64,000 bases of DNA. Source: Caldilineaceae bacterium (lineage in GTDB: Bacteria > Chloroflexota > Anaerolineae > Caldilineales > Caldilineaceae). Each line of letters begins with the position of its first letter. Position 1 is the stretch's first letter. The stretch covers positions 2,082,594 to 2,146,593 of the forward strand of contig OZ241379.1 of NCBI GenBank assembly GCA_965200685.1. The letters are read 5' to 3'. Below the pieces are notes generated by a model that did no database searches, was not told the origin of the DNA, and saw only the letters and a list, made by a program, of their open reading frames with translations. The translations under genes and the position numbers were made by a program. Below are positions 1,748-34,307 of the stretch, in pieces.

Positions 1748-1749
1748 CT

Positions 1750-1782
<33 letters not shown>

Positions 1783-2048
1783 ATTATGTAATATATAATT
1801 GATAATACGAATTTAGTCACAAGACGTCGTCCCTCGCCCGCAACATGCGGGTGAGAGCGCGGCCCCTGCACAGGGTCATCCGCAATCATTGCACTGTCTA
1901 CGCGGACCTGATCTTGATTATTCATAATCGCACCTTGTTGACGGGATACAGATAACGTTCGGTACTATCTATAATGTTATCTTATCATACTTGCTTGATC
2001 CGTGTCAATCTTGAATAATTACACTTCTAGTTTGACCCAACGAAAACA
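1783..2048 (-). promoter_or_regulatory. Conserved upstream leader/promoter block of the LRR gene, paralogous to 32263..32461
   Basis: It is about 90% identical to the block upstream of the second LRR gene, except for a 68-nt insertion at 1935..2002. A candidate promoter is TTCGTA (1811..1806) - 17 nt - CATAAT (1788..1783), directly abutting the G tract. There are three conserved hairpins; the strongest is at 1833..1855. Confidence 0.55.
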
Positions 2049-3120: not shown

Positions 3121-5783
3121 GAACCCCTGTACTGTCCCGGCAAGCCCTCCACAATCTCTACTGTCTCCACACTCACGGCGATGACCTTCTGCAGCAGGCC
3201 GATGATGTACTGATCATTTTCGCGGTTGGGATCATTGACGATACCGCTGCGTTTGTCTATCTTGACCCGGTACTGATCAAGGACCCATTCTAAGGCAGAC
3301 CGATTCCCTAGCCGATAGGCAAATGCTTTCTTTGGGATCCCCTCTAAGGTCAAGAAGTCGTTGTAGCGGATCGACTGTTTGTCCTTGGAGAGCCGCATCT
3401 TCTCCACCCGCCAAGTGGGGGCCTGGCCGGGCCTCTCTACCAGGGTGAGCGGATAGGCGGGCATCTGTTCATAGTTTACATGGATGTCTGCCAGACGTGC
3501 GCCGGCCTTGGCAAAGGCCCGGAAGTCGGACGACTGTGGGGTAAGGGGGATGTGTGGCAGGTCCCGCTTGAGGTTGGCTTGATACCGTTCACGATAGCCC
3601 GGGTGATGCAATAAGGCGTAAACGTAGTGGAAGATATCCCATTTGCTGATGGATTCATCCTGATACTGCCTGCGGAACTGTGCCAATGCCCAATCTGTAA
3701 TATTCTCGCGGCGGTTGCTGCCGTCTTCGTTGTAAGTGTAGAAGGGGAAACATTGGGAATTGCCAGTAAGATGCAGTTCTGGTATCTGCTGTGTCATCAG
3801 GCAGTGGAATGTTTTGTTGCTTCCGAGGCCTCTGACACAGACCGCCCGATTCTCTGTTTCCGCTGTAGGGAAGATGGACGGGAAGAGGTACACACTGTTG
3901 TTCATCAGCCGATCAAAATAAAGATACGACTTTGTAAATGGACGATAGAGGGATTGCCGAACTTTATCAATTGTAAAATACCCGGTCTTTTCCTTTTTAA
4001 GTGCCTGTTTCAAGTCGCCACTCCAACTAATTTTGCGATTATCAGAGATGACAAAATCATTTATATTCACATCATAGTTTTCCTGACGTTTCCAGCGGTC
4101 TACTTCCGCATTGTAGTGCCGAATCATGCGGTTCATGTTCTCAATGAGCACGTTGCGGTTGAAATTGTACGCCCATGCATCACGGCCCGTGACGACACCG
4201 CGACTATAACTCTTAAAGATTACATCTACCGCCTCGCCTTTCCCTGCTTTTGCTTCCTTTGTCCCCAAGGGGATAAAGGTCTCAAATTCAGCGTGGAGTC
4301 CTTCTGTGAGCCATGTATATCGCTTGTCCGGTCGTATCGCTTTCCATTCGATGTTGCGGTATTGTTCCTTTGCATCAAGATAGCCGTACTTCTCTTCCTT
4401 GCGCCACCACTCATCAACACGTGCGTAGAAGATTTCCGTTTGATCTGCCTTGTCGCGCCGCTTGACGCAAAAATTGATGCTCACACCCACTTGAATGCCA
4501 AAGACATTGTGTGTTGTCCCAGAGAGTTTTGGATTCTTACGCACGTTCCCAGCCAGATCCAGAATGTAGATGGCGTCGAAATCCTCTGCGAGGTGTTTCC
4601 GCATGCCATCGAACGCCACACCATCAAGAAAGCTGTTGTTGGTCACAAAGGCGACGATCCCTGCCTCGCCTATGCGGTCTGCTGCCCAGCGCATGGCCTT
4701 CACATAGGGATCATAGAGTGCGTTTTTATTGGTCGCGTTTGAGTCCTTTGCATAGGTCTCCCGAACCCGCTTGTCCATGGTGGCATAGGTGCGGTTCTTG
4801 TTGTTGTCATTCTCATTGACCTGCCCGATGTTGTAAGGCGGGTTGCCGATGATGACCGTAATATCCTGTTTCTTCTGATGCTCCACACGCTGTGTGTTCT
4901 CTTGGACAAACAAGCTGAGTTGGGTATCCTCGGCCAGCTCAAAGGTATCAACCAAGCAGATGCCCTCAAAGGGCGCGTACTGCCCCATCAGTTCATAGTA
5001 TTCATGCTCAATGTTCAGGGCCGCGATGTAGTAGGGCAGCAGCATCACTTCGTTGCAGTGTAGTTCCGTCTTGTACTTATGACGCAGGCTTGAGACTTTG
5101 CCCAGTTCCTGCAGGTGACGCATGACCCGCAGCATAAAATTGCCCGTACCCACGAAGGGGTCCAGCACATGTACGCCGGCATCGGCTAAAGAACGACCGA
5201 ACTCTTGGTTGAGGATAGCTTCCACGGAGCGCACCATAAACTCCACAATGGGCTGTGGTGTGTAGACGATGCCATGGGTGTCCGCGTCCTTGACGGAAAA
5301 GCCTTGGAAGAAGTTTTCGTAGACAGTGTTGAGGAAGCCCTGCTTCTCTGCATAGTCCCTGATAGTGGCTGCGGTCGTTTCAATGGCCGTGTAGAAACCC
5401 TCTAGGGGCAGGAAGAATTCATACCGGCTGAAATGCTGGCCGGTCAAGGCCTGCACCACCTCCTCGATCTCCCGTGCGATCACATTGCGGGCCACAAAGT
5501 CCGGGTTGTTGAACACCCGCCGGAAGATGCGTTCTGTCAGCAGGTGCTGGATCAGCATCTCCTCTACGGCTGCATCGGCGATGTTGGGGTTGATGGCATC
5601 TCGGCACAGAGTGGCGAAGCGGGCGAACGCCTGCCGAAAGGCCCGGTTGTGCTGCCGCTCCCCTTTGATTAAGGTCAGCAAAGACTCGGCCAGGGCCGGC
5701 ACTACCGTCTTGAACTCCTCCACTGACCAGTGCCAGCGCGCATAGGCCGGTGCCTGATAGGTATAGAAGTGGTTCGTAATCAA
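3117..5783 (-). CDS. N6-adenine DNA methyltransferase with a Type ISP-like C-terminal specificity domain. This is the N-terminally shorter tandem paralog and may be a silent or variant cassette.
   Basis: 888-aa ORF. SAM motif I is [11 protein letters not shown] and catalytic motif IV is IIGNPPYN, giving the gamma-class order. The C-terminal block ENITDWAL...[32 protein letters not shown]...ADIHVNYE resembles the LlaBIII/LlaGI-type (Type ISP) target-recognition tail. It starts at TTG exactly at the duplication breakpoint, with no convincing SD. Confidence 0.75.
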
Positions 5784-5885
5784 TCCTGGGCTGAGAAGCC
5801 GGTCTTTATCGTATCCGATTTTTCATAACTGGGCGCAGTTTGAGCCCGAGTTGGAGAGAAAAACGGGCATCTGGGTCGTTGTGGC

Positions 5886-8800
5886 TTATAGGCAGTGGGT
5901 AAACCGGCCCGGCAAGCCTTCCACAATCTCTACTGTCTCCACACTCACGGCGATGACCTTCTGCAGCAGGCCGATGATGTACTGATCATTTTCGCGGTTG
6001 GGATCATTGACGATGCCGCTGCGCTTGTCTACCTTGACCCGGTACTGATCAAGGACCCATTCCAACGCGGACCGGTTCCCCAGCCGATAGGCAAACGCTT
6101 TCTCTGGGATCCCCTCTAAGGTCAAGAAGTCGTTGTAGCGGATAGATTTTTTGTCCTTGGAGAGCCGCATCTTCTCCACCCGCCAAGTGGGGGCCTGGCC
6201 GGGCGTCTCTACCATGGTGAGCGGGTAGGCGGGCATCTGTTCATAGTTTACATGGATGTCTGCTAGACGCGCGCCGGCCTTGGCAAAGGCCCGGAAGTCC
6301 GCGGCTTTATCTGTTGCGCCTGCCATTGGGGGCGGCATGGGGATGTGTGGCAGGTCCCGCTTGAGGTTGGCCTGATATCGCTCTCTATATTGGGGATGAT
6401 GCAGCAGGCCGTAGACATAATGGAAGATATCCCATTTGCTGATGGATTCATCCTGATACTGCCTGCGGAACTGTGCCAATGCCCAATCTGTGATGTTCTC
6501 GCGGTGCTTGCTGCCGTCTTCGTTGTAGGTGTAGAAAGGGAAGCATTGGGTTTTTTCAAGTATGTCAACGCATGGAACCATAGAAGCCATCAAGGTCTGA
6601 AAAGGTTTGTTGCTTCCGAGGCCACTGACACAGATCGCCCGATTCTCTGTTTCCGCTGTAGGGAAGATGGAGGGGAAGACGTAGACTCTCTCGATCATCA
6701 TTCTATCAAAGTACAGGTGCGACTTTGTAAAGGGACGATAGAGAGAAGCCCTTACCTTTTCGTGTGAAAAATCAGCGATTTTCCCTCTTTTCAAATTTCG
6801 TTTCAGTGTTTCGCTCCACTTAATTTTCTGGTCATTATACACCACAAACTCATCAACATTCGCCCCCTGATCCCTCTGTCGTTCCCACTTGAATACCTGT
6901 TCATTATAGCAATCGATCATCCCCTGAATATTCTCTGTAAGCACACTTCGGTTAAAATTGTATGCCCATGCATCACGGCCCGTACTGATACCACAACTAT
7001 AACTCTTAAATAATACATCCCCCACCTCGCCCTTGGTCGCCTTTGCTTCTTTGCTCCCCATAGGGAGAAAGGTATCAAACTCGGCGTGGAATCCCTCTGT
7101 AAGCCAGGTATATCGCTTGTCCGGTCGTATCGCTTTCCATTCGATATTGCGGTACTGTTCCTTTGCATCAAGATAGCCGTACTTCTCTTCCTTGCGCCAC
7201 CACTCATCAACGCGTGCATAGAAGATTTCCGTTTGATCTGCCTTGTCGCGCCGCTTGACGCAAAAATTGATGCTCACACCCACTTGAATGCCAAAGACAT
7301 TGTGTGTTGTCCCAGAGAGTTTTGGATTCTTACGCACGTTCCCAGCCAGATCCAGAATGTAGATGGCGTCGAAATCCTCTGCGAGATGTTTCCGCATGCC
7401 ATCGAACGCCACAGCGTCAAGAAAGCTGTTGTTGGTCACAAAGGCGACAACCCCCTCATCCCCTATGCGGTCCGCTGCCCAGCGTATAGCCTTCACATAG
7501 GGGTCAGAGAGTGCGTTTTTATTGGTGGCCTTTGAGGCCTTTGCATAGGTCTCCCGTACCCGCTTGTCCATGGTGGCATAGGTACGGTTCTTGTTGTTGT
7601 CGTTCTCGTTGACCTGGCCTGCGTTGTAGGGTGGGTTGCCGATGATGACCGTAATATCCTGCTTCTTCTGGTTCTCCACGCGCTGTGTGTTCTCTTGGAC
7701 AAACAAGCTGAGTTGGCTGTCCTCGGCCAGCTCAAAGGTATCAACGAGACAGATGCCCTCAAAGGGCGCGTACTGGCCCATCAGTTCATAGTATTCATGC
7801 TCGATGTTCAGGGCCGCGATGTAGTATGGCAGCAACATCACCTCGTTGCAGTGTAGTTCCGTCTTGTACTTATGACGCAGGCTTGAGACTTTGCCCAGTT
7901 CCTGCAGGTGACGCATGACCCGCAGCATGAAATTGCCCGTACCCACGAAGGGGTCCAGCACATGTACGCCGGCATCGGCTAAAGAACGACTGAACTCTTG
8001 GTTGAGGATAGCTTCCACGGAGCGCACCATGAACTCCACAATGGGTTGTGGTGTGTAGACGATGCCATGGGTGTCCGCGACTTTGACGGAAAAGCCCTGG
8101 AAAAAGTTTTCGTAGACAGTGTTGAGGAAGCCCTGCTTCTCTGAAAAGTCCGTGATAGTCGCGGCTGTGGTTTCAATGGCCGTGTAGAAACCCTCTAGGG
8201 GCAGGAAGAATTCATAACGGCTGAAATGCTGGCCGGTCAAGGCCTGCACCACCTCCTCGATCTCCCGTGCGATCACATTGCGGGCCACAAAGTCCGGGTT
8301 GTTGAACACCCTGCGGAAGATGCGTTCGGTCAGCAGGTGTTGGATCAGCATCTCCTCTACGGCTGCATCAGCGATGTTGGGGTTGATGGCATCTCGGCAC
8401 AGAGTGGCGAAGCGGGCAAATGCCTCACGAAAGGCCCGGTTGTTCTGCCGCTCCCCTGCGATTAAAGTCAGCAAAGACTCGGCTAGGGCCGGCACAACCG
8501 TCTTGAACTCCTCCACTGCCTGTTGCCAGCGCGCATAGGCCGGTGCCTGATAGGTGAAGAAGGTCTGCAGGCCCTCAATCAGCAGTTCCGGCGCAGCGAT
8601 GGGGCTGTCCCACACCCGCTGCCCCTGTTGGATGACCACCATGCGCTGCGGGGCCTGGAAGAGGATATTGTCCTGGGGGTAGCCAGTAGCCAGCTTCTTG
8701 CGGATCTCTAGATCTAGGTCATCATCGCTATCTTTCGCTTCCCAATAGCCATGGGCCAGGTTGAAGTCGTCCAACAATGCGCCATCAATGCGAATGCTGC

Positions 8801-8987
8801 GGCCATCGGCCAGCTTGCGCGTGTACTGCTCGGTTAGGGTCCAGCCGAGGGGTTGCGCGCCTGCACGCAGGATATTGGCAAATGCCGGCGCGACCGCGCC
8901 CTCATGGGCAAAACCAAGCTCTGTCAGCTTGCTCAATTCGCTGAAATAGGCTGCGATGGCTTGTTGTGTGGCTTTGCGCTGGAGCAT
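5886..8987 (-). CDS. Type IIG/ISP-like fusion: PD-(D/E)xK-like N-terminal module, N6-adenine methyltransferase and specificity domain (no helicase)
   Basis: The track ORF is 5886..9107. I place the start at the ATG at 8987 (MLQRKATQQAIAAYF...). The 40 upstream codons are Cys/Trp-rich and overlap the preceding gene by 110 nt. The N-terminus has RIDGALLDDFNLAHGYWEAKD, a D..D-x9-E-x-K pattern. It is followed by [19 protein letters not shown] and the same C-terminal tail as the downstream paralog. Confidence 0.75.
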   Translation of the reverse strand: MLQRKATQQAIAAYFSELSKLTELGFAHEGAVAPAFANILRAGAQPLGWTLTEQYTRKLADGRSIRIDGALLDDFNLAHGYWEAKDSDDDLDLEIRKKLATGYPQDNILFQAPQRMVVIQQGQRVWDSPIAAPELLIEGLQTFFTYQAPAYARWQQAVEEFKTVVPALAESLLTLIAGERQNNRAFREAFARFATLCRDAINPNIADAAVEEMLIQHLLTERIFRRVFNNPDFVARNVIAREIEEVVQALTGQHFSRYEFFLPLEGFYTAIETTAATITDFSEKQGFLNTVYENFFQGFSVKVADTHGIVYTPQPIVEFMVRSVEAILNQEFSRSLADAGVHVLDPFVGTGNFMLRVMRHLQELGKVSSLRHKYKTELHCNEVMLLPYYIAALNIEHEYYELMGQYAPFEGICLVDTFELAEDSQLSLFVQENTQRVENQKKQDITVIIGNPPYNAGQVNENDNNKNRTYATMDKRVRETYAKASKATNKNALSDPYVKAIRWAADRIGDEGVVAFVTNNSFLDAVAFDGMRKHLAEDFDAIYILDLAGNVRKNPKLSGTTHNVFGIQVGVSINFCVKRRDKADQTEIFYARVDEWWRKEEKYGYLDAKEQYRNIEWKAIRPDKRYTWLTEGFHAEFDTFLPMGSKEAKATKGEVGDVLFKSYSCGISTGRDAWAYNFNRSVLTENIQGMIDCYNEQVFKWERQRDQGANVDEFVVYNDQKIKWSETLKRNLKRGKIADFSHEKVRASLYRPFTKSHLYFDRMMIERVYVFPSIFPTAETENRAICVSGLGSNKPFQTLMASMVPCVDILEKTQCFPFYTYNEDGSKHRENITDWALAQFRRQYQDESISKWDIFHYVYGLLHHPQYRERYQANLKRDLPHIPMPPPMAGATDKAADFRAFAKAGARLADIHVNYEQMPAYPLTMVETPGQAPTWRVEKMRLSKDKKSIRYNDFLTLEGIPEKAFAYRLGNRSALEWVLDQYRVKVDKRSGIVNDPNRENDQYIIGLLQKVIAVSVETVEIVEGLPGRFTHCL

Positions 8988-8997
8988 GGGTACAGTG

Positions 8998-11900
8998 CTA
9001 TTGTTGCGTTGGTTCTGTAGGCGCGGGCTCCATAAGCAGGAGCTGCGGGCGTAGGCTCGGATGCAGGCGCACCAATTCCGTTCGATATCGATAAATGCTT
9101 GCCACATCCTTCAGTTCAAAGCCGTGCATTGTCCGCACAAAGGTGATCTGAAATGGATCTCCTGACAATAAACGCGTGACCCGTAACCCCTGCAGAACGT
9201 CCTCTGTCAGGTCGCTATCGTGGTTGCCGGAAACTGCGGCAAATTCTACCGGCAGCCCGTGAGATGCCAGCCGGTCTGAGACATCGTGGTTGGCAGCAGG
9301 TTTGGCAGCAGTCCACACGTTTTCCAAATAGCGCAGCATGGTGGCTGCATGGGAGGGACCAGTCATGTCTACGTCAAAGGGCCGCGGTGGGGCCTGGGCA
9401 TCTGGTGCAGCAGCCCCGCCTCTGCTTTGTTCGGGCGCGGCCCGCGATGCTGCATCGACCTGGGGACCGTGTACATGCCGTGTTGGGGACGAGGCGTCCC
9501 GCCAGAGGAGATGTTCTAGATTGTATTCGTGGGCTAAGGTTCGCACGAGATCCGTACGCGCTTGATTGGCCTCGCTATCCTGTAGGCCGGTCACCGCCAT
9601 TTTCACACTTTCGCGGATGTAATTGAACAGGGTTTCGGCGAGGGGTGAGGCAGATCCTGTTTCGATGAATTCTGCTGGCGAACGCCGCGCATACGAGGCT
9701 GCATGTTCCCCGTTGAGCAGAGATGCTAATTGCCGGCGACGACGCAGAGATGTCCAGATTTCCCATAAACGCTCTTCCCCTTGCCGTCCTTCTAGGTCTT
9801 GGCGATTGCGTAGGATTGCTTGGCAGCGTGCCCACAATTTTGCTGTGAAATGGGGACGATACAGATGGGAGCCGGCCGTATGCGGCGGGAGTGTAGGTAT
9901 GCCCGTATCAACAGACCATTCACGCAGCTCCTCGCAGGTGTCCTCAAGGGCATGGGCCATGTGGCGTACCATCTGTTCTAGATGCCCATACGCCCGCACA
10001 AGTCCATGATGCACACGCTCCTGCACGTGGGCAGTCAGTTCAAGGCTGGCGAGCTCTACCCGTTCTTGTCGTAATGTCTGCGCGCGGCGTAGCCGCAGCC
10101 GATATGCTAGGATGGCACCTGACAACGCGCCGGCCATCAGCCCTAAAAATGTAGTTCCATTGACTTCCAGATCGAACGGTTGCCGGAACATGACAACATG
10201 GAGCCAGGCCAGCAGCGCAATGCCACCGAGCAGACAGAGAGCACGAACCAATGAAGCGGGCAGAGAGGGCTGGTCGGCAATGGCCCCTAGATAGCGGATA
10301 TGCCACTCTCGGACTTGCGGCTGGCGTTTCATCTCTGCCCCAGGGGGACTAACGGAAAGGTCTTTGAGTTCGGTCAGCCATTGCTGGAGCTGCTGCTGCG
10401 CCCGCAGAATCCCGCATGGCTGGGCACTGAGCAAGGTGAGCAGATAGTCTCGCATCTGACGAGAGGTGGCCGGCAGAAAGCGCTGGTCGCGCGGGTTGAG
10501 AGGCAGGCCATCCTCACCGAGAGCATCAAGCCCCCAGGCCTTGTCCAGTACAGTGGGCCCGATGCTCTCCTCAAGACGTGCCAACACTGTCTGAAATTGC
10601 TCGTCAAAGGCAGTCTGCCAGCCGATGGGGTCACGGCCGCGCAGTTTGAGGGCCATGGCCGCTGGCAGTATATATTCAGGATGGATGGCAAGTTGGTCCA
10701 GTGATTGAGGGGCCTTGTCCTCAAACAGATCCGGGAGCTGTGAGATGAGCTGGCCCAATACCTGTGGCGGCGTTGCCCCCAATTCCGCTAACCCCAGTGG
10801 CGAGTTACTTCCCCCCTCTTCACGCTCCACGGGTGTGAGGATCTGCTCCCGCAGCAGCCGCTTTTCTTCTTGCTCTTGCAGGGTCTGCAAGATATACGTT
10901 AGCGGCACATAATCTGTGGCTGCGCCCAGCAAGCTATAGGGGCGTTCCCTGGCGTTGCGGAGATCGATTCCAATCTGTTCATCGACAAAAGCGGCCCCAT
11001 CCGCAGCGATGAGGGCCTGTAGGCTGTTGCCAACCAGAACAGACAGTTCATAGCTGCTGTGGGCCAGCCCCTGGTTGCTTTTCTCCCGGTCCAGCAGATA
11101 GATGCGGTCAAACAGCCGGCGGCCCAGCCATGAACCCCAGGGTCCTGTGATCTGTGACCTGGGCCCAGGGGTGTCACTGGTTGTCCAGGGGTCATTGCCT
11201 ACTACAGGATCTTCCCCCAACAAGGGCAAAAATTCATTGAGATTTGCCCGGCGCAGGCCGGTAAGTGCCTCTAGTTCCGCGATGGCAGCATAGCAGGAGG
11301 CATCCTCAATGCGCCGGCTGTTGTCGGTGGCATAGCTCCCTGTGGCGAAGATGCCCACGACTTGCGAGATGTGACGCTGCCCCACATCATGGAGCTGATG
11401 TGCGACCATCGGCCAGATCAGCGCGGATGTCAACGGTTCATAGAGCGGTGCGACCACGTAAAGCGTCGTCTGTACGAAGGGGTCGGTGGGCGCATGGATG
11501 TCCGCGCGGATGGGGTTGATGATGTTGGAGGAGAAGGCCCTGGCAATCTCATCCCCGGCCCGCAGCGCGGCCCGAAAAGCAACCCGCCGGGTCATAGCGG
11601 TGGGCTGTGGCCTGTACTCTGTATTGGCTCCTGCCCATTCAGGATCCCTGGGTGTTTCGTTTTCCTGCCATGGCAGCGGCACTAGGACCTCGGCGGCTGC
11701 CTCGCGCAGCAGGTCTGCCCAACGCTGTGCTTGGCCAAACCCACTGGCCACGGGCCAATGGCCGCTTTTACTGGGCAATGATGTTGCGCTGCTCGTGCTT
11801 CGCAAGCGCTGTAGTAAGCCTTCTAGATAGAATGGCGGCAGGCGTCTGTCCTGCAGGGTGAGCAATTGGAGGGCCATCTGGCCATCGGGCCCGACCTGTT

Positions 11901-12078
11901 CTTCCGCCATAAGAGTGGCAAAGCGGGCAATGTGCGTCAGGTCCGGGCCATCTATGGCTGCGGCCATCCGTTGTTCTTGGGATTCCCGCAGCCGCGAGGC
12001 CAGGTGGAGCATTGTCTGCAAGCCCCAGCCTCCGAAACAGAGGATGGCGGCTCGGCTACGGGTAGCACCAGGAATCAT
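8998..12078 (-). CDS. Membrane-anchored paralog of the tubulin/FtsZ-like protein, with degenerate GTP-binding motifs
   Basis: 1026-aa ORF whose start overlaps the upstream stop (ATGA). It aligns by eye to the 839-aa neighbour at three points. (1) AILCFGGWGLQTMLHLA matches TLIVGVGGMGSNTVRAV. (2) TLYVVAPLYEPLTSALIWPMVAHQL matches LVYVVSSLCGGTGAGMFMDVAHRV. (3) QVVGIFATG...CYAAIAELEAL matches RVVGIFYLP...AYAALKELNYF. Two hydrophobic helices lie mid-protein (LVRALCLLGGIALLAWLHVVMF and FLGLMAGALSGAILAY). Confidence 0.6.
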   Translation of the reverse strand: MIPGATRSRAAILCFGGWGLQTMLHLASRLRESQEQRMAAAIDGPDLTHIARFATLMAEEQVGPDGQMALQLLTLQDRRLPPFYLEGLLQRLRSTSSATSLPSKSGHWPVASGFGQAQRWADLLREAAAEVLVPLPWQENETPRDPEWAGANTEYRPQPTAMTRRVAFRAALRAGDEIARAFSSNIINPIRADIHAPTDPFVQTTLYVVAPLYEPLTSALIWPMVAHQLHDVGQRHISQVVGIFATGSYATDNSRRIEDASCYAAIAELEALTGLRRANLNEFLPLLGEDPVVGNDPWTTSDTPGPRSQITGPWGSWLGRRLFDRIYLLDREKSNQGLAHSSYELSVLVGNSLQALIAADGAAFVDEQIGIDLRNARERPYSLLGAATDYVPLTYILQTLQEQEEKRLLREQILTPVEREEGGSNSPLGLAELGATPPQVLGQLISQLPDLFEDKAPQSLDQLAIHPEYILPAAMALKLRGRDPIGWQTAFDEQFQTVLARLEESIGPTVLDKAWGLDALGEDGLPLNPRDQRFLPATSRQMRDYLLTLLSAQPCGILRAQQQLQQWLTELKDLSVSPPGAEMKRQPQVREWHIRYLGAIADQPSLPASLVRALCLLGGIALLAWLHVVMFRQPFDLEVNGTTFLGLMAGALSGAILAYRLRLRRAQTLRQERVELASLELTAHVQERVHHGLVRAYGHLEQMVRHMAHALEDTCEELREWSVDTGIPTLPPHTAGSHLYRPHFTAKLWARCQAILRNRQDLEGRQGEERLWEIWTSLRRRRQLASLLNGEHAASYARRSPAEFIETGSASPLAETLFNYIRESVKMAVTGLQDSEANQARTDLVRTLAHEYNLEHLLWRDASSPTRHVHGPQVDAASRAAPEQSRGGAAAPDAQAPPRPFDVDMTGPSHAATMLRYLENVWTAAKPAANHDVSDRLASHGLPVEFAAVSGNHDSDLTEDVLQGLRVTRLLSGDPFQITFVRTMHGFELKDVASIYRYRTELVRLHPSLRPQLLLMEPAPTEPTQQ

Positions 12079-14594
12079 GGCACATTACCACCGGGGTGTA
12101 CAACATCCCAGGGATTGTACTCCCTGTTGAGGAACTGCTGGTTGCTGGGATGACGGGAATCTTCTTCGGTGATTTCGGGCAGATCGACCCAAGCGGGATT
12201 GAGATGAAATTCCTCCCGCACGGGGAAATCTTGGCTGTTTTCATACTGTTCCTGAAATTCATCTAGGCGGTCGATGAGGGTCACGGGCAGGCCATGGACA
12301 ATCCAGACAGCATCCATCCGCCCTGTGTCGCCGGTCGGCACCCATTTCAAGTCCTCTTGGCCGATCATGGCCAGGGCCAACTCTGCATCGTCTTCCCGGG
12401 CGGAGGGCGTGGCTGCCAGACGGATGTGTTCTAGGTCTGCATCATGAAAGCTGAAGCGGTCCGCGTCCCAGCGAATGTAAGGGTTCAGCCGGTCCAACCA
12501 TTGCTGCACCCGGTTGTTGGGGAGCGGGCGGGCCTGCTGCACCTCCTCCCCATATTGCACGCCGATGATGTGGCGGATGTCTATCTGTTGCTTTACTCTG
12601 CCCAACAGGCCCTGATCTTCGCTGAGTGTCTTCGTCAGCATGGTGAACAGATTTTCAGCATTGATTGCATTGCTGTAGTACAGAATCGTATCAATGAGCG
12701 TTCCGAGCAGAGCGTGCCAATCGCTGGGATAAACAGACTGGGCTGCGTTGTGATAGAAATGTTGTAGGTAATCCCGCCCGACTACACCGGTTTCTAGTTC
12801 GTAGTAGGTACTGGTGCTGGGCGTGCCATCGGGGATGCGGGGGTCGATGCGGTCTGCAGCTTGGCTGGTCTCCTGATTGGCGCGTAGCAGCGCGGCACCA
12901 GCATTGTTGATCTGCATGCGGAAGACGTCTCGCATCTGTGCGCCGTACACCGAGAGCCGTTCTACCAGTATTCGTTCCAGCATATCCCGGCGTTGGTTGA
13001 GTCGGGCGCGAGCCTTGCGGTTCCGTAGATCCAGAGCCCGGTCCCGGGCCTGACGAGGACTGAGGGCCGAGAGCAGGAGATCGCCGAAGCCACTGGCTAT
13101 CTGGCCGATTCGTTCGATATGTCCTCCTTCCTGGGCCAACAATGTGCGCCAGCGGGCCCGGTCCTCCTCTGCTACTGGTTGGTTGTTCAGCAGCAAAAGG
13201 CGTTGTTTGGGCAGGGATTCTAGAGGGGCGGTGGCAGGGTTCAACGGCCCTAGCAGATCTGTCAAGGCCAGAGCTCCTCGCAAGCCGAGTTCGAGAACTG
13301 CCTGACGGAAGGCAGTGTCCACGATTTCCTTAAAGCCTGTGTATGCGCTGCGGCTTTCCGCGATCTCGTCGGCTAATTCCTCTAGCCGGTCACTGTCTAG
13401 GGAAAGATAGCGGGCCCGCAATTCCAGCAAAAGCCCCTGCCAGATCGTGGTAGCCTTCTGGCGGTCTGTGTTGCTGATGGGCTGATGGGGGTCATTGAGA
13501 GAGGGGCCGGCCGCAAGGCGTCGTAGGCAATCCCCCAAAAAGGCCTGCTGCCAGAAATTCACCAGTGCTTCGTCCGGCGTGACAATGGCAGAGGTGGCAA
13601 AGCTACTGTAGACTAGGTAGTTCTTTTGCCGGCGTTCGCCTATCACCTCTGCGGCCGCGATGGCTCCGGACATGCGTTCCCTGACGATGTTCACCTCTAG
13701 GCCGAGGATTTCGCTGCTCAGGTGGCTGATGGCTGTCAGTTGGATGAGATGGGCAGCCAGTTTCTCTGCATCAGCTTTGCGGGCTAGGCTGCGGCCGTCT
13801 CGGTTGGTGCGCCCGACTAAGAAGATAAAATCAAAGGGGGCATAGGGGGTGTCGGGCAGGGCCCGCTGTTCGCTTGGGTACAGTTCATGGAACTGTTGCG
13901 TTTCTTGAAAGTAATTCAACTCCTTGAGGGCTGCATAGGCATTGGCCTTAATACGCCGTCGTTGGAGATCACTATGTATCTCCTCCTCCAGCACATCCGG
14001 CAGGTAGAAGATACCGACAACCCGGGCATTGCTACGCACGAGGGCGCGCACCCTGTGCGCCACATCCATAAACATCCCCGCGCCTGTGCCACCGCACAAG
14101 CTGCTCACCACATACACAAGCTGGTAGTTGCTCATCACCGGAAAGCCCCGGTTCTGGGCCATCTCCAGGTCCCGAATCTTATCTAAGGAGGCATACTTCG
14201 TCTCCAACAGGCGCTTGAATGTTACATAATTACGGAAAAAGGAGAGCCGGCCGATGGGCCGTAACTGTTTGGCCCCGTTGTGAATGTACCCCAAAGGAAT
14301 GGAGGGATAGTTCCACCAACGAGCGATCTCCGGATGGTTGTCTAGGTTGGAGACCAAGCGTGTGGCGTCAAATTTGCCCATGTAGGCGATTTCATCAGCA
14401 TGGAGAGGCTCTTGGTCGAGTCGGTTGACCAAAGGCTCTGTGTCGAGGGCCAGCAATTGGATCATGGCGGGCAAGGATTCTCGGCCCCATACATTACGTA
14501 GCCGGCGTTTGACCGCGCGCACTGTGTTGCTTCCCATGCCGCCCACGCCCACAATTAGCGTCGGATAGATAGTTGGCTTATCGCCGAGCTGCAT
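12075..14594 (-). CDS. Tubulin/FtsZ superfamily GTPase-like protein (Tubulin_2 / FtsZl1-like)
   Basis: 839-aa ORF. The N-terminal GVGGMGSN resembles the FtsZ T1 loop GVGGGGxN. NGAKQLRPIGRLSFF is present. SSLCGGTGAGMFMD matches the tubulin/FtsZ signature [SAG]GGTG[SAT]G. There are no predicted TM helices. Confidence 0.75.
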   Translation of the reverse strand: MQLGDKPTIYPTLIVGVGGMGSNTVRAVKRRLRNVWGRESLPAMIQLLALDTEPLVNRLDQEPLHADEIAYMGKFDATRLVSNLDNHPEIARWWNYPSIPLGYIHNGAKQLRPIGRLSFFRNYVTFKRLLETKYASLDKIRDLEMAQNRGFPVMSNYQLVYVVSSLCGGTGAGMFMDVAHRVRALVRSNARVVGIFYLPDVLEEEIHSDLQRRRIKANAYAALKELNYFQETQQFHELYPSEQRALPDTPYAPFDFIFLVGRTNRDGRSLARKADAEKLAAHLIQLTAISHLSSEILGLEVNIVRERMSGAIAAAEVIGERRQKNYLVYSSFATSAIVTPDEALVNFWQQAFLGDCLRRLAAGPSLNDPHQPISNTDRQKATTIWQGLLLELRARYLSLDSDRLEELADEIAESRSAYTGFKEIVDTAFRQAVLELGLRGALALTDLLGPLNPATAPLESLPKQRLLLLNNQPVAEEDRARWRTLLAQEGGHIERIGQIASGFGDLLLSALSPRQARDRALDLRNRKARARLNQRRDMLERILVERLSVYGAQMRDVFRMQINNAGAALLRANQETSQAADRIDPRIPDGTPSTSTYYELETGVVGRDYLQHFYHNAAQSVYPSDWHALLGTLIDTILYYSNAINAENLFTMLTKTLSEDQGLLGRVKQQIDIRHIIGVQYGEEVQQARPLPNNRVQQWLDRLNPYIRWDADRFSFHDADLEHIRLAATPSAREDDAELALAMIGQEDLKWVPTGDTGRMDAVWIVHGLPVTLIDRLDEFQEQYENSQDFPVREEFHLNPAWVDLPEITEEDSRHPSNQQFLNREYNPWDVVHPGGNVP

Positions 14595-14674
14595 AAGTTG
14601 ATTCCCTAACTGTAGTGGAGAGTGGTTGGTGGTGAGCCCTTGGAACCATGCGATCCTTCACTTTCCACAGGTGT

Positions 14675-17600
14675 TCACCAGTCGGATGCCCAGGGATTGC
14701 CAGACCCTGAGCGGTATTTGTTCCAGTCGCTGTTGGCCTGCTCTGCATCATGCGCTCCGTCAGTCGCTGTTGATTCCGCTCCCCACATGCCAGTGTCCTG
14801 TGGCCAGGGTGCTGTAGCCTGTGGGTTTGTATTGGTCTCGGGCCATGGAGCATTGTCTGTGGCAGTTTCACTGGCCCGGTGCTCCTCGGCCGCGGGGGTT
14901 GGTTCCTCGTCTATGTTATAGCCACGGCCACGGGTCCGGGCGATGATGACCAACAGCAGCAGAAAGAACAGGGGGCCGGAGCAAAATACCAGTGGAAATG
15001 TGTAAAACGGACGTAGCCACCACTCGACATAGCGTTGGTAGAAGGTTGGGCTGCGGAAGCTGGCATCCACGGAACGGGTTTCATGGGGCAGGCCCGCTAT
15101 GCCCAACACCAGATCTCCGCTATAAAATGAGCCATACAGGGGATCTTTGGGTATGGCCTTGCGGGCGACTAGGGTGATGGGAACCTCATAATAGCCGTCG
15201 GCGTCGGGCGTCCCGCTGATCTCAATCGCTGCTGCTTCCAAAAAAGATTCGTCCAGTGTCTGGGGCCCTTCGTCCGTTTCCCCTGCGGCAGTGAGTCCTA
15301 ACACTTGTACCACAAAAGGCGTCTTGCCATCGAATCGTAGTAGGAGTGATGCTGTGGCTTGTTCGCCTGCCAGCCCCAGATCACCGAAATGCAGGGATCC
15401 TGCGATGCGCCATTCAAGCCCGCGAATTTGCAGCCGGTAGGGAAGGGTATTGGGCAGAACGTCGAAATCTTCGCTCGGGCCGAGCAGGCGCAGAACACCA
15501 CTACAGCCGCCGGATAGCACAGGTACTTGGCTCTGCAAGCGAAGCGGAAGGAGCCCCGCTCTGGTAGGGGTAGTTTCACTGGGGCTCCCTTGGAACTGTA
15601 CATCAGCGGCTGTCACGGTCAGGCCGTCGCAGGTACTTTCGTTCACTTCCACCGTGAGCCGGAAGGGAGTGCCCTCCACAAAATCGACTGGTAGCAGAAT
15701 CGTCTCATCGAGTCGGAAATTGGGGGAAGTATCAAACAGTAGTTCGCCAAAGTCTGCTTCCTGCACTGCAATGTGGGCTGCGGCGCGGGAAACAGTAAAC
15801 ATCACAGGCAAGGAGGGCGCAGGGCGGATCAGAACATCCATGGGCAAACCGGCTGGACTGAGGACGGACAAGCGTAGGTCGCCCTCGTATGCACCAGGGC
15901 GCAGAAGATCGAGACCGTCCATCTGCAGGGTCGCGGTTTGGCTGCCTACTGCTGGCACATCAACCGCAAACTGTAAGTCAACATCACTGACAACTTCGCC
16001 GCTATCCGTCCGTCGTAAGGCCAGGGAGCCTACTAGGCTGCCGATATCGTATTTCGCGGAAGTACCAGCCTGAACCGTCACTGTCCAGCCTGTGGCTGGC
16101 ATTTTCAGCAGATCGAGCGTAGGCGGTAGGCCGCGCACATAGACTGCTGGCTCAACATCTAATAGGGCCCGTGCGAAACTGCCGAAGTGGAACCCCTGAT
16201 CATTGGCCATTGCGGTGAGCAAAAACAACACCTCATAGCTATGCCCATCTTGGGGCACAAACCCGTTGTCCGTGCAGATGCGTTCCCGGCAGGAGAGGGC
16301 CTTCTGGTATACTGGCTGCCGGCCGCTGTTGTCATCAAAGGGGGCAACGATCCCCGAAAGCTGAGAGGTTGCACTGTCCGCCTCGGTAATGTCCATCACG
16401 AATGCGGTTGCTTGCAACCCCTGTATGGGTAGGCCGGGCCCAAACCCCACCCTGAGTTGCAGGCTGCCATCGCCGAGTATGCCGGGATCGTTCACTGATG
16501 GCGAGTGAACCTGTACATTCGGCAGATCTGTGCGGGCGACTAGCCGGAAGGAGCGGCGCAACTGCAAGGCGTTTTCGTCATCCCCCAATTGTACCATGAC
16601 TTCTTCGGGGCTGCTGGTAAGCTGCACCGCGCCAATCGCATCTCGTCCCAACCCATCCTGGCCGAGGAGGGGGATGCGTGTTGTGCCATTGAGCAACAGC
16701 GGCTCGGCAGCAGCGGGCCCAGCCCCTCGTACTACTAGAAGAGGTGTCTGGCCGGCTGGGTAGAAACGCATGGAGGCAGGGCTGCCCTGAATACTGGGCG
16801 GCGGGAAGAGGAGCTCGGGGAAGCTGTCCGCCTGCACGACAGCAAAGCTGCTCAGGTCCGATGTTTCCGCGGTCCATTCTCCGGCCGGCAGAGGGCTGCC
16901 CGCCACCAGCAGATCGACATTGTCATCCGCGAGAACGCTCACAGTCCGCATGGGGGCCGCGTCCCGCCGAACACTGCTGATGGCTGCTTGAGGAGCGATG
17001 AAAGCCAATTCACCCACCCCATGTTCCTCGCGAATGGAAACGGCTAGATTGCCATAGACATTGCGTTGGCTGACGACCGAGCGGTCTGATTTCATTTCCG
17101 CGAAAACTTCGCTGAAAATCCGCAGAATATCCGGCGCACTTTTGGCCTCTTGGACTCGGGCTAACTGATTTTTGAGGAAATCGCCTGGGCAGCCGGCGTT
17201 CGGATTGCAGAGGAGTACCGGATAGATCTGCACGTCCGCGGCCTGCATCTGTGCAAGCTGTTCGCTGACCGTCTCGCGCTGGTTATAGATAGCATCGGGG
17301 GCGGTCGGCTCGCCATCGGTGAGCAGCAGCACATATTGGCTACGGTTCGGCTGCCGGCCGGCCGTGAGCAGACGCAGAGCCTCTTGTAGGCCCAAGTCCA
17401 TACGTGTATAGCCTCTGGTGCCATAATTTAGCGGCGGCTGTAGGGAAGCTGCTAAGCGACGGCGGTTCTCGCGGCTGCCGACTTCTTGTAGACGCCCCAA
17501 GGAGCCGACCCCCTCAGCGCCGCTGTCAAAGCGCAAGACAGCGATGCGGTCGTCTGGATCTGCCAGCGCAATCAGCAAACGGGCAGCACTATAGCGCAGC

Positions 17601-17848
17601 TCGTTCGGGTCGCTCGGTGGATTATAGCTATTGCCGCCACAGGGCGGGCCATAGGGAGGCCCATCCTGTGGCCAAGGCCAGCAGGTAGCCATACTGCCGG
17701 AGTCGTCAAGCATCACAACGACATCAATTTTCAGTGCTCTTTCTGTTTGCGCGTGTAGGGGCGCAACAAATTCTGCTGCCCACAAGGCGACACACCCCAA
17801 CAGTAGCCAGATGAACACGACTCGAAGCCGTTGAACGACGATTCTCAT
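14675..17848 (-). CDS. Large vWA-domain ectoprotein with an N-terminal signal/anchor and a C-terminal TM helix plus a cytoplasmic Trp-rich acidic tail
   Basis: The track ORF starts at the TTG at 17872. I prefer the ATG at 17848 (MRIVVQRLRVVFIWLLLGCVALWAAEF). The MIDAS motif is VVVMLDDSGSM (DxSxS), followed by LLLTDGEPT. A beta-rich ectodomain of about 800 aa follows, then the TM segment PLVFCSGPLFFLLLLVIIARTRGRG and an 87-aa tail. Confidence 0.8.
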   Translation of the reverse strand: MRIVVQRLRVVFIWLLLGCVALWAAEFVAPLHAQTERALKIDVVVMLDDSGSMATCWPWPQDGPPYGPPCGGNSYNPPSDPNELRYSAARLLIALADPDDRIAVLRFDSGAEGVGSLGRLQEVGSRENRRRLAASLQPPLNYGTRGYTRMDLGLQEALRLLTAGRQPNRSQYVLLLTDGEPTAPDAIYNQRETVSEQLAQMQAADVQIYPVLLCNPNAGCPGDFLKNQLARVQEAKSAPDILRIFSEVFAEMKSDRSVVSQRNVYGNLAVSIREEHGVGELAFIAPQAAISSVRRDAAPMRTVSVLADDNVDLLVAGSPLPAGEWTAETSDLSSFAVVQADSFPELLFPPPSIQGSPASMRFYPAGQTPLLVVRGAGPAAAEPLLLNGTTRIPLLGQDGLGRDAIGAVQLTSSPEEVMVQLGDDENALQLRRSFRLVARTDLPNVQVHSPSVNDPGILGDGSLQLRVGFGPGLPIQGLQATAFVMDITEADSATSQLSGIVAPFDDNSGRQPVYQKALSCRERICTDNGFVPQDGHSYEVLFLLTAMANDQGFHFGSFARALLDVEPAVYVRGLPPTLDLLKMPATGWTVTVQAGTSAKYDIGSLVGSLALRRTDSGEVVSDVDLQFAVDVPAVGSQTATLQMDGLDLLRPGAYEGDLRLSVLSPAGLPMDVLIRPAPSLPVMFTVSRAAAHIAVQEADFGELLFDTSPNFRLDETILLPVDFVEGTPFRLTVEVNESTCDGLTVTAADVQFQGSPSETTPTRAGLLPLRLQSQVPVLSGGCSGVLRLLGPSEDFDVLPNTLPYRLQIRGLEWRIAGSLHFGDLGLAGEQATASLLLRFDGKTPFVVQVLGLTAAGETDEGPQTLDESFLEAAAIEISGTPDADGYYEVPITLVARKAIPKDPLYGSFYSGDLVLGIAGLPHETRSVDASFRSPTFYQRYVEWWLRPFYTFPLVFCSGPLFFLLLLVIIARTRGRGYNIDEEPTPAAEEHRASETATDNAPWPETNTNPQATAPWPQDTGMWGAESTATDGAHDAEQANSDWNKYRSGSGNPWASDW

Positions 17849-17890
17849 AGCAAAATCATTGCCTAGGATCAATCAAGCATGCCCGCAAAG

Positions 17891-17899: not shown

Positions 17900-17919
17900 C
17901 AAACTGCAGTGGAGGGCAG

Positions 17920-19371
17920 TCACTCTCCACTGGCATTGTTTTCTTCAAGGATCTCTGTAAGCGCAGCGACGAACTGGTCCGTGGGCAATGCGCCAGGGAT
18001 CAGGCGGCCTTGGTCGCTATACAGGACGATAAATGTCGGCGTGCCCCGCACGAAGGGCAGCCCTTCCTCGATATCATGCTGCACATCCTGCACAACCGCA
18101 TCGTCTGTCAGGCAGGTTGCAAATTCGTTGGTGTCTAGGTCGGATGCAGCGGCCAGCTCGATAAAATAGTCGCTGTTTTCCGCCTGACTCCACTCTTCTG
18201 TGTCCTCAAACAGGCGTTTGTGGAACGTCCAAAATGCGTTTTGCTGGGCTGCACATTCGGCAGCGATGGACGCGGAAAAAGCATAGGGGTGGATGTTTTC
18301 AATGGGAAAATGCTTGAACACCCACATGACATCTCCTACCTTAATAAACTCTTCATCCAGAATCGGCTGTGTTGTCAGCGTGTGGCGACGGCAGTAGGGA
18401 CACTGAAAGTCGCTAAATTCGATAACGACGAGAGGCGCATCACTGTTCCCATAATAGGTATCACCCGCGACAGTATAACCGGGACGCTGCGGGTCCGGGC
18501 TTAAGCCTTCTGCTGTAGCCCAGAAGGGGACTTGTTGGTTGCCCTGTTGTTGGCTCGCGGCCGCGCCTTGCGGTGAGCCGCCAGTGCGGATCGTTTCGAT
18601 CCACTCGGCAAAGACATCATAGGGCTGGGCCCCCCTCAAGCTGAACGATTGGCCTGTCTCTTCATGCACAAAGCGAAAACTAGGGGTCCCACTGAAGCCG
18701 AAGGACTGGGCTTCGGTCAGGCTTTCGGATACCCGCGCCAAGGGCACTGCAGTATTGGCCATGCACGCGCCGTATTGGGTCGCATCTGCCCCGATCTCTT
18801 GGACCAGCTCCGCAAAAAATGATAGGGCCACATCCAGAGATGCCCACTCCTGCTGGGTGAAGAAGAGCTGGTCGTGCATCTGCCAGAAGAGGATAATATC
18901 CTGCTCGGCGACACAGTTGGCGGCAATCGCGGCCGGGAGAGCATTGGGATGTAGAGAGGACAGAGGCATATCCCGGAACACGAATTTCACAAGGCCGGCT
19001 TCAACAAATCTGGCCAGCAAAGCCGGTTCGGTCTGGATAACGTGCCGGGCACAGAAGGGGCATTGGTAGTCGCTGTATTCGTAAATAGTAATCGCCGCGT
19101 TCGGGTCACCCCGGAAGGGGTACCCTTCGGCAGTAAAGCCCACAGGAAGGCCTTTGTACATGGCCTGCCCAGGGGCGGGAGAGAGGGGTTCTGGCTCCTC
19201 GTCTGCGGTGTTTGTGGCGGTAGGTTGCGCTTGCAGAACATCGACTGCTGTGTCCTTTGTGGGGACCGGGCTAGTGGCTAGAGAAATCCCACTCTCGCCG
19301 GCCACACAGCCGGAGATGAACAGAAGGGCAAGAACGAGGGAGAGCTGCGGGCATATGTTTGCTAAACTCAT
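17920..19371 (-). CDS. Lipoprotein with two tandem DsbA-like thioredoxin-fold domains (thiol:disulfide oxidoreductase)
   Basis: There are two CxxC active sites in DsbA-like context (YSDYQCPFCARH and FSDFQCPYCRRH). The lipobox is LLFISGC. I place the start at the ATG at 19371 (MSLANICPQLSLVLALLFISGC), which has GAGGAG 7 nt upstream. The track ORF extends to 19428. Confidence 0.85.
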   Translation of the reverse strand: MSLANICPQLSLVLALLFISGCVAGESGISLATSPVPTKDTAVDVLQAQPTATNTADEEPEPLSPAPGQAMYKGLPVGFTAEGYPFRGDPNAAITIYEYSDYQCPFCARHVIQTEPALLARFVEAGLVKFVFRDMPLSSLHPNALPAAIAANCVAEQDIILFWQMHDQLFFTQQEWASLDVALSFFAELVQEIGADATQYGACMANTAVPLARVSESLTEAQSFGFSGTPSFRFVHEETGQSFSLRGAQPYDVFAEWIETIRTGGSPQGAAASQQQGNQQVPFWATAEGLSPDPQRPGYTVAGDTYYGNSDAPLVVIEFSDFQCPYCRRHTLTTQPILDEEFIKVGDVMWVFKHFPIENIHPYAFSASIAAECAAQQNAFWTFHKRLFEDTEEWSQAENSDYFIELAAASDLDTNEFATCLTDDAVVQDVQHDIEEGLPFVRGTPTFIVLYSDQGRLIPGALPTDQFVAALTEILEENNASGE

Positions 19372-19482
19372 GTAAAGGCTCCTCATGGGACGAATCCAAT
19401 GGAAAGTGCGACCGGTGATTGGCCGCATTCAATTCGCTTCACTCCCTGTATTGTAACCGTGAGAGCAACAGACCGCAATTTA

Positions 19483-34282: not shown

Positions 34283-34307
34283 TATTCGTGAAACACTGGT
34301 GTACACC

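Follow-up and report, generated by a model that had tools for sequence, protein, structure and literature searches.

The FtsZl1 proteins, which correspond to the Pfam family Tubulin_2, have been characterised as that branch of the tubulin superfamily which has diverged furthest. We have analysed a stretch of 64,000 nucleotides (nt) from the genome of a Caldilineaceae bacterium (Chloroflexota; GenBank assembly GCA_965200685.1, contig OZ241379.1, positions 2,082,594 to 2,146,593 of the forward strand; hereafter the window) that carries at 8998..17848, on the minus strand, three adjacent genes encoding a vWA-domain protein, a Tubulin_2 protein and a divergent paralog of the latter. The FtsZl1 family was defined by Makarova and Koonin in 2010 (Biol Direct 5:33; PMC2875224; Pfam PF13809, Tubulin_2). 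Most FtsZl1 operons include a vWA gene whose metal-ion-dependent adhesion site (MIDAS) is intact and whose product is often membrane-bound or secreted, and for these vWA/FtsZl1 operons a membrane-associated, membrane-remodelling complex has been predicted (PMC2875224). A different interpretation comes from Kaur, Burroughs, Iyer and Aravind (2020, eLife 9:e52696; PMC7159879), who have read related neighbourhoods as GTPase-centric conflict systems, enriched in multicellular prokaryotes, the chloroflexi included; in the Firmicutes versions two genes encoding a tubulin domain and a coiled coil accompany a transmembrane (TM)-anchored protein with an extracellular vWA domain.

The trio in the window belongs to this known, computationally predicted class. 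Read 5' to 3' on the minus strand its order is gene 1 (vWA), gene 2 (Tubulin_2) and gene 3 (the paralog), and the Chloroflexus aggregans trio listed in Additional file 5 of PMC2875224 has the same gene order and size pattern: Cagg_1317 (vWA, 1017 amino acids, aa), Cagg_1316 (FtsZl1, 763 aa) and Cagg_1315 (1083 aa). The last of these was labelled there only as COG0576/GrpE and was not recognised as an FtsZl1 paralog. That GrpE match is spurious; a distant relative of gene 3, P0372 (1084 aa), has the same weak GrpE match and similar downstream genes, and Cagg_1315 is therefore probably a homolog of gene 3. In contrast, none of the OmpA-like proteins, distinct P-loop GTPases and kinases that are stressed in PMC2875224 occurs in this window. 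The layout of two tubulin-like proteins plus a TM-anchored extracellular vWA protein is equally that of the Firmicutes versions of the GAP1-N2 systems of PMC7159879, but the components that define the latter (GAP1, Zn-ribbon TRAFAC GTPases and FNIII-repeat proteins) are absent beside the trio, going by the Pfam annotation of its neighbours, and the trio stands alone at a fixed chromosomal site. Moreover, that paper confines the tubulin theme to firmicutes and actinobacteria and mentions neither the loss of the GTP loop nor a membrane hairpin in one of the paralogs. The novelty that a first-pass annotation of this DNA had claimed for the arrangement has thus shrunk, since the vWA/FtsZl1 operon is published (PMC2875224) and so is the combination of two tubulins with a vWA protein (PMC7159879). 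What does appear to be new is the recognition of the third Chloroflexota gene as a full-length FtsZl1 paralog that lacks T4 and is anchored by a hairpin, for which we found no earlier description, together with, apparently, the integrin-like layout of the receptor with its conserved cytoplasmic end-peptide and the strongly asymmetric evolutionary rates of the two paralogs.

Judged by its gene order in other genomes, the trio is one conserved gene unit. A scan with the gene 2 profile, one genome per species, yielded 80 loci, nearly all of them from Caldilineales or related Chloroflexota, a result that assigns the window to the Caldilineaceae; because the back-translated patterns used were lineage-specific the scan was restricted to Caldilineales, and what we say of the wider distribution rests on a profile search of 1.8 billion representatives, not on this genome scan. 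Among the Caldilineales loci with room for the gene in question, 70 of 71 have vWA upstream of gene 2 and 62 of 67 have gene 3 downstream of it, in both cases on the strand of gene 2. Order and strand are kept down to about 35% identity, and all six of the distant metagenomic loci that were reached via remote relatives of gene 3 have the arrangement vWA, Tubulin_2, gene 3-like gene. These data sustain the first-pass view of the three large minus-strand open reading frames (ORFs), each found at the position given for it, as a single unit whose neighbourhood should be conserved. The unit ends at gene 3, since in 26 loci a convergent gene with a DUF1385 domain directly follows it. The stop of gene 2 and the ATG of gene 3 do overlap (ATGA) in this genome, as had been noted; the translational coupling deduced from this is ruled out as a general trait by the relatives, in which the overlap is not conserved and the two genes are usually spaced by about 10-250 nt. 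Genes 1 and 2 are separated by 80 nt in the window. A scan for promoters and terminators around the trio returned counts at the level of shuffled sequence and hence no information on operon structure.

The genes that accompany the trio vary among the six distant loci and include classical AAA ATPases, Ser/Thr kinases, PP2C, radical SAM and HerA-like genes. In four of the six (L082, L083, L085 and L087) a classical AAA ATPase (PF00004) lies upstream of the vWA gene, one of them with a weak Vps4_C match. In three of these four an unannotated gene of about 550-620 aa is found further upstream of the AAA gene, and in some loci genes for Ser/Thr kinases, PP2C and radical SAM proteins come after. 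No AAA, kinase, PP2C or radical SAM gene of this kind lies near the trio in the window. Still other versions are borne on plasmids. On plasmid pMESIL01 of Allomeiothermus silvanus (L088; NC_014213.1 155224-174000) a vWA protein of 521 aa without a signal peptide, a tubulin-like protein of 909 aa and a hypothetical protein of 686 aa are bracketed by two copies of one IS701-family transposase, with a WYL protein and a RecQ helicase on one side and brxL and a helicase on the other, which looks like a composite-transposon arrangement within a defence island. The third gene of this Thermaceae cassette (686 aa) was considered as a homolog of gene 3 and rejected (hhalign E=0.18 and no Tubulin_2 match). 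A Nostoc plasmid carries its vWA/Tubulin_2 cassette beside CHAT and caspase genes.

Database searches with the three proteins of the trio gave no match in NCBIfam, zero families in PADLOC-DB 2.0 (E <= 0.1) and, in sequence searches of the PDB, no relative with a solved structure. Our further comparisons have employed alignments of 33 sequences for the gene 3 family (A1), 30 for the gene 2 family (A2) and 67 for the gene 1 family.

Gene 2 (12075..14594, minus strand; 839 aa) is a bona fide member of the Tubulin_2/FtsZl1 family. Residues 13-352 match profile positions 1-350 of the 356 in PF13809 with 203.6 bits (cut-off 27; E=6.9e-60), so that the first-pass assignment, made from two loop motifs, is borne out by the Pfam profile. 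The domain occupies 13539..14558, with the T1 loop GVGGMGSN at 14526..14549 (aa 16-23) and the T4 loop GGTGAG at 14076..14093 (aa 168-173); residues G168, G169, T170, G171 and G173 of the latter are invariant in 30 homologs. Both loops fall in register with those of Escherichia coli FtsZ (hhalign E=0.012) and of the CetZ structure 3zid (E=0.44). Gene 2 is not, on the other hand, a canonical FtsZ or tubulin: its match to the Tubulin family PF00091 (20.1 bits, E=8e-4) covers the T4 region only and lies below the cut-off of 33, and Pfam gives zero FtsZ_C or Tubulin_C matches. The Tubulin_2 domain is followed by a long helical or coiled-coil region and then by a C-terminal alpha/beta domain with the motif PTGD...VHGLP (12285..12338), and hydropathy reveals no TM segment. 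The AlphaFold2 (AF2) model of gene 2 is poor because the alignment is too shallow (30 sequences of 62-82% identity). Its mean predicted local distance difference test (pLDDT) is 53.7 and falls below 50 over most of residues 1-340, the GTPase domain being disordered in the model; the confident part is helical: it spans 341-448 and 476-583, with one helix of 70 residues at 513-583, and continues in helical stretches as far as 742.

Gene 3 (8998..12078, minus strand; 1026 aa) is the more unusual member of the pair. It had been called a full-length paralog of gene 2 at the outset, a claim that fails by BLASTP, where the two proteins show no significant similarity, and that stands at the level of profiles. 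On its own, gene 3 matches Tubulin_2 with only 12.4 bits (E=0.091), below the gathering score, and 11 of the 33 members of its family match at E <= 0.01. An hhalign comparison of the whole gene 3 and gene 2 family profiles gives E=0.0017 with a probability of 15%, and by region the similarity resolves into three collinear matches: the tubulin-like N-domain (10849..12066; positions 5-410 against 7-358, E=1.8e-4), the C-terminal half (E=4.9e-4) and the last ~110 aa (E=1e-5), the latter corresponding to a C-terminal domain (9019..9351) that is common to both proteins and contains the motif [ST]GD...VHG[LF]. HMMER with A1 found only 189 relatives of gene 3 across the 1.8 billion representatives, and the family is thus narrow; three of its distant members, P0311 (29.7 bits), P0324 (28.9) and P0340 (28.0), lie above the Tubulin_2 cut-off of 27 and are recovered by the gene 3 profile at E 1e-31 to 1e-50. 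On this transitive profile evidence gene 3 is a full-length, collinear and very divergent FtsZl1 paralog, not a direct Pfam member.

A T1-like GGWG or GxGxWG is retained across its family (here the remnant FGGWGLQ, 12016..12036), whereas at the position of T4 the family has SL[AST][ED][DP]xA[AST] without the glycine loop (here APLYEPLTS, 11425..11451). In FtsZ and tubulin the backbone amides of T4 hold the phosphates, and with the loop gone gene 3 would presumably not bind GTP in the canonical manner. Gene 3 also carries a hydrophobic helical hairpin (10096..10263; aa 606-661), as the first-pass annotation had predicted. Hydropathy shows a strong segment at aa 613-631 and a weaker one at aa 642-661, the AF2 model (pLDDT 76.4, predicted TM-score (pTM) 0.70) has helices at 606-631 and 637-722, and a similar hydrophobic pair is present in distant members of the family. 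The loop between the two helices is short and a strongly basic stretch follows the second one; both large domains are therefore predicted to be cytoplasmic. When the full-length model was compared with the PDB by Foldseek, CetZ2, gamma-tubulin, FtsZ and OdinTubulin recurred among the matches (probability 0.85-0.93 over ~240 columns). Its best matches, however, are not tubulins but alpha-pore-forming toxin components, AhlB and SmhB, plus MakA (E from 5e-3, probability up to 0.97, TM-score <= 0.3), and these are likely to be explained by the long helical bundle tipped with a hydrophobic hairpin.

Gene 1 (minus strand) begins at an ATG that gives 14675..17848 and 1057 aa, or alternatively at a TTG at 17872 (14675..17872; 1065-aa numbering); the ATG is favoured because the alignments of homologs are gapped over the first 8 residues. 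The vWA domain (17216..17725; aa 50-219 in the 1065-aa numbering) matches Pfam VWA (PF00092) with 27.8 bits against a cut-off of 23.8, as well as VWA_2, and the intact MIDAS seen in the first reading of the sequence is confirmed: DDSGSM at 17690..17707 (aa 56-61) and LLLTDGEP at 17306..17329 (aa 182-189) are kept in at least 90% of the 67 homologs. The topology proposed then also holds, being largely kept in the distant loci. By hydropathy the protein has an N-terminal hydrophobic signal (MRIVVQRLRVVFIWLLLGCVALWAA...LHA/QT) and a C-terminal TM helix (14942..14998; aa 959-977) followed by the positively charged ARTRGRG, and would accordingly be of type I. Its ectodomain of ~740 aa contains cysteines, eight of which are essentially invariant (99-100% of the homologs), the vWA domain is the best-conserved block of the protein, and the alignment reveals no hypervariable or diversifying segment in the ectodomain. 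The predicted cytoplasmic tail of 88 aa (14678..14941), compared among 12 representatives, is acidic, of low complexity and poorly conserved, with recurrent Trp-Gly/Asp motifs; its extreme C-terminal peptide is nevertheless conserved as D/N-P-W-x-S-x-W (here GNPWASDW, 14678..14701) and is a candidate docking motif. The counterparts in the six distant loci have a signal peptide and MIDAS in five cases and, at the threshold used, a C-terminal TM segment in four, and all six end with a C-terminal region of about 90-150 aa.

The two paralogs have evolved at very different rates. In the 27 loci that share CysD, the median identity to the window is 83% for CysD, 80% for gene 2, 76% for CysN, 70% for the Dsb-like protein described below, 59% for the vWA protein and 49% for gene 3. 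Gene 2 is thus as constrained as a core enzyme, with a mean column identity of 65% along its full length, the coiled-coil and C-terminal domains included, and its degenerate paralog evolves much faster. Throughout a clade of order rank the trio has been inherited vertically and occupies one fixed position in the core genome.

Six large minus-strand ORFs lie between 19428 and 3117 in the window, and the genes flanking the trio (by Pfam) are Dsb, CysD, CysNC and restriction-modification genes of the Type IIG/ISP-like kind, with DUF1385 in the relatives. Directly upstream of gene 1 is a gene for a lipoprotein with two DsbA/thioredoxin-like domains (17920..19428, minus strand; Pfam Thioredoxin_4 and DSBA; lipobox-like LLFISGC). 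Among the 80 Caldilineales loci it was detected in 54, as a rule on the upstream side of vWA, and among the six distant ones in none; as a lineage-specific accessory it might oxidise the eight invariant cysteines of gene 1. An inverted repeat with a 10-bp stem (17907..17932) spans the stop of the Dsb-like gene and the intergenic space, and may be a partial terminator between that gene and the trio. On the other side lie two tandem Type IIG/ISP-like methyltransferase-specificity genes (3117..9107, minus strand; Pfam ISP_coupler, N6_Mtase and Type_ISP_C; PADLOC REase_MTase_IIG) that share 86% identity over 887 aa. The first ~180 residues are missing from the downstream copy (3117..5783), the differences between the two cluster around aa 720-850 of the longer one, where target recognition probably resides, and both are devoid of the helicase or nuclease portion of a complete Type ISP enzyme. 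Because the longest ORF of the upstream copy extends 110 nt into the end of gene 3, the real start of that copy is probably later. We considered these genes as part of the module and rejected them: they adjoin the trio only here and in L001, and since DUF1385 takes this slot in 26 loci the pair is an insertion in this genome. Further along the window are a protein of 1634 aa that consists almost wholly of leucine-rich repeats (27329..32233, minus strand), one of 623 aa with three DUF5671 stretches (32564..34435) and one of 1088 aa whose sole recognisable domain is a bacterial SH3 (35754..39020); the latter two are large, envelope-type proteins only a few genes from the trio. The GC skew is unusually high (~0.2) at 28-32 kb and at positions 1..2000 of the window.

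Several well-known systems help to put the proposed parts of the trio in perspective. Alpha/beta-tubulin and BtubA/BtubB are also paralogous pairs of the tubulin superfamily, side by side and presumably acting jointly, with one altered or non-catalytic nucleotide site. Alpha-tubulin, beta-tubulin, BtubA and BtubB nevertheless all keep the T4 signature and bind GTP. In the trio, by contrast, T4 is gone from gene 3, there is no Tubulin_C or FtsZ_C domain or identified T7, and gene 3 is an integral membrane protein. The division of labour between FtsZ and FtsA/ZipA, a soluble GTPase of the tubulin superfamily with a separate membrane-anchored partner, is what we propose for the trio, and in both cases docking is likely to go through a short, conserved peptide at the C-terminal end of a disordered linker; here, however, the tether is a paralog of the GTPase rather than an actin-fold or unrelated protein, and the peptide is on the tail of the vWA receptor instead of on the GTPase. 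Finally, and by analogy only, gene 1 resembles the integrins: a type-I protein with an extracellular MIDAS-containing vWA domain, a long disulfide-bonded ectodomain, a single TM segment and a short tail with a conserved aromatic motif, encoded next to proteins of a cytoskeletal family. We claim no homology with integrins other than the vWA fold; an alpha/beta heterodimer is absent here, and the partner is tubulin-like rather than talin plus actin.

In view of all this we favour, tentatively and at a little under even confidence, the reading that the trio is the Chloroflexota form of the vWA/FtsZl1 module, in which a GTPase/pseudo-GTPase pair and an extracellular vWA receptor would form one transmembrane complex with a housekeeping role in the envelope. 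Gene 1 would be exported, with its MIDAS-containing vWA domain and disulfide-bonded ectodomain outside, a single TM anchor and the Trp-peptide tail inside. Gene 2, a soluble member of the tubulin superfamily, would bind GTP, and gene 3 would be an ancient paralog of it that has lost T4 and gained the membrane hairpin; as a non-catalytic partner, gene 3 could keep gene 2 at the cytoplasmic face of the membrane, the two forming a heterodimer or co-polymer. Their assembly, dependent on GTP, might then be coupled, via the tail of gene 1, to the binding of an external ligand by the vWA domain, either outside-in or inside-out by analogy with the link between integrins and the cytoskeleton. In the filamentous Caldilineales the trio would serve the envelope in a housekeeping capacity, for instance in shaping the membrane, in adhesion or in the integrity of the filament, rather than as a mobile defence. 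We favour such a role because the position in the core genome is fixed, inheritance is vertical, gene 2 is under FtsZ-like constraint and there are no diversifying segments. Our data show the domain content, the predicted topologies, the paralogy, the loss of T4, the synteny and the relative degree of conservation; that the parts interact physically, that they depend on GTP and polymerise, in which direction they signal and what they do for the cell is what we infer. A bolder form of the same idea would be a bacterial counterpart of integrin-type outside-in coupling, in which the Trp-peptide of the MIDAS receptor recruits or releases a membrane-bound heteropolymer of active GTPase and pseudo-GTPase, or, in a sharper variant, the hairpin of gene 3 may itself be a regulated, membrane-perturbing effector. 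We regard this counterpart of integrins as unlikely, but if true it would represent an uncharacterised class of obligate active/inactive tubulin-fold pair whose inactive member is an integral membrane protein.

A number of observations weigh against the favoured reading. No T6, H7 or T7 could be identified in FtsZl1 and nothing was alignable beyond H5 (PMC2875224); filament formation is therefore uncertain and was left open there. Sixteen years after the description of FtsZl1 we found no biochemical, structural or genetic study of it, and no phenotype, in the searchable literature. In the Foldseek comparisons, suggested from the outset as a check of the tubulin fold, the matches of the gene 3 model are recurrent and of the CetZ, FtsZ and tubulin type but weak, all of them being above E=1e-3 (tubulin-type E 0.04-0.4), and the low-confidence gene 2 model (GTPase domain pLDDT <50) gave no meaningful match; for gene 2 the pointers to a tubulin fold are indirect, by way of these gene 3 matches and the homology of the two genes. 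Five loci of one Caldilineaceae subclade (L052, L054, L055, L056 and L058) keep vWA and Tubulin_2 with no gene 3 within 10 kb by hidden Markov model (HMM) search, and gene 3 must therefore be either dispensable there or encoded elsewhere. In these loci the slot downstream of Tubulin_2 is taken by unrelated genes, for a C-5 DNA methylase, a YozE_SAM_like/MUG113 protein and a CoA transferase. Lastly, vWA/Tubulin_2 pairs of other phyla reside on megaplasmids beside BREX genes, insertion sequence (IS) elements, CHAT proteins and caspases, and restriction-modification or nuclease-like genes adjoin the module in the window and in L001, L052 and L054.

These last two points lead directly to the possibility that the trio is a conflict or immunity system in the sense of Kaur et al. 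2020: the vWA domain would sense an invader- or damage-derived peptide, the pair would assemble in a GTP-dependent manner, and the hairpin of gene 3 would perturb or perforate the membrane, aborting the infection within the multicellular filament. The Firmicutes neighbourhoods of PMC7159879, with their two tubulins and extracellular TM vWA protein, and the enrichment of such systems in multicellular prokaryotes are consistent with this, and so are the plasmid cassettes beside brxL, between IS701 copies or beside CHAT and caspase genes, the defence-type genes that abut the module here (the Type IIG/ISP-like pair) and in L001, L052 and L054, and the kinase, PP2C, AAA and HerA-like genes found with the distant versions. 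The resemblance of the helical/hairpin part of gene 3 to AhlB and SmhB (Foldseek E=5e-3, probability up to 0.97) would fit a pore-forming effector, but at TM-scores <= 0.3 it may be due to no more than a long bundle of helices whose tip is hydrophobic. Weighing against a conflict system are the absence among the neighbours, as annotated by Pfam, of the GAP1, Zn-ribbon GTPase and FNIII components that define the published ones, the zero PADLOC matches of the three proteins, their vertical inheritance at one fixed site of the core genome throughout a clade of order rank, the conservation of gene 2 to the same degree as CysD, and a vWA domain that is the most conserved part of gene 1 with no diversifying segment. 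On balance we find such a system somewhat unlikely, if a serious contender.

Alternatively, the tubulin-like pair could serve the vWA protein rather than be served by it, as a nucleotide-dependent assembly or quality-control device that, like the MoxR-vWA pairs of chaperone and co-chaperone, inserts, clusters or activates an ectoprotein that is itself the functional adhesin or surface component. Proteins with a vWA domain are habitually paired with an NTPase (PMC5898192; PMC7159879), PMC2875224 allowed for FtsZl1 without filaments, a Dsb-type oxidoreductase lies upstream in Caldilineales, and four of the six distant versions have a classical AAA ATPase gene preceding vWA. In contrast to the MoxR-vWA ternary systems, however, the trio in the window has no AAA+ gene next to it, and the AAA genes of those four loci are of the classical PF00004 kind and not MoxR. 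Tubulin folds are known in no chaperone, the full-length conservation of gene 2 (65% mean column identity) suggests the many fixed interfaces typical of polymer formers, and both large domains of gene 3, being predicted to be cytoplasmic, are oddly placed for an export helper. An assembly device, proposed by analogy, therefore strikes us as improbable. It could also be argued that the three genes are mere neighbours without a shared function and that the similarity of gene 3 to gene 2 is a profile artefact of helical, biased composition. The non-significant BLASTP comparison, the 15% probability of the first hhalign run and the uninformative promoter and terminator scans are what such a view can draw upon. 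It is largely refuted by the synteny, with order and strand kept to ~35% identity and in six distant loci, and by the transitive profile evidence: three independent collinear matches that include the globular N- and C-domains, distant relatives of gene 3 above the curated Tubulin_2 threshold, and tubulin and FtsZ structures that recur among the Foldseek matches. We consider it very nearly out of the question.

The reading that we prefer, a transmembrane module of vWA receptor, FtsZl1 GTPase and membrane-bound pseudo-GTPase, gains in interest from the simplicity of this version. The trio is compact and well delimited, with three genes at a locus that is fixed across an order and without variable accessory genes. 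It leads to two definite predictions, namely that a soluble GTPase is tethered to the membrane by a paralog unable to bind GTP in the canonical way, and that the conserved C-terminal peptide of the receptor tail docks onto the gene 2/gene 3 pair. If true, they would help to decide between membrane remodelling and a conflict system, the two published readings of these neighbourhoods, and would reveal a way of connecting a tubulin-fold GTPase with a receptor outside the cell. Should gene 2 turn out not to polymerise, that would itself be informative on the capabilities of the ancestral tubulin fold.

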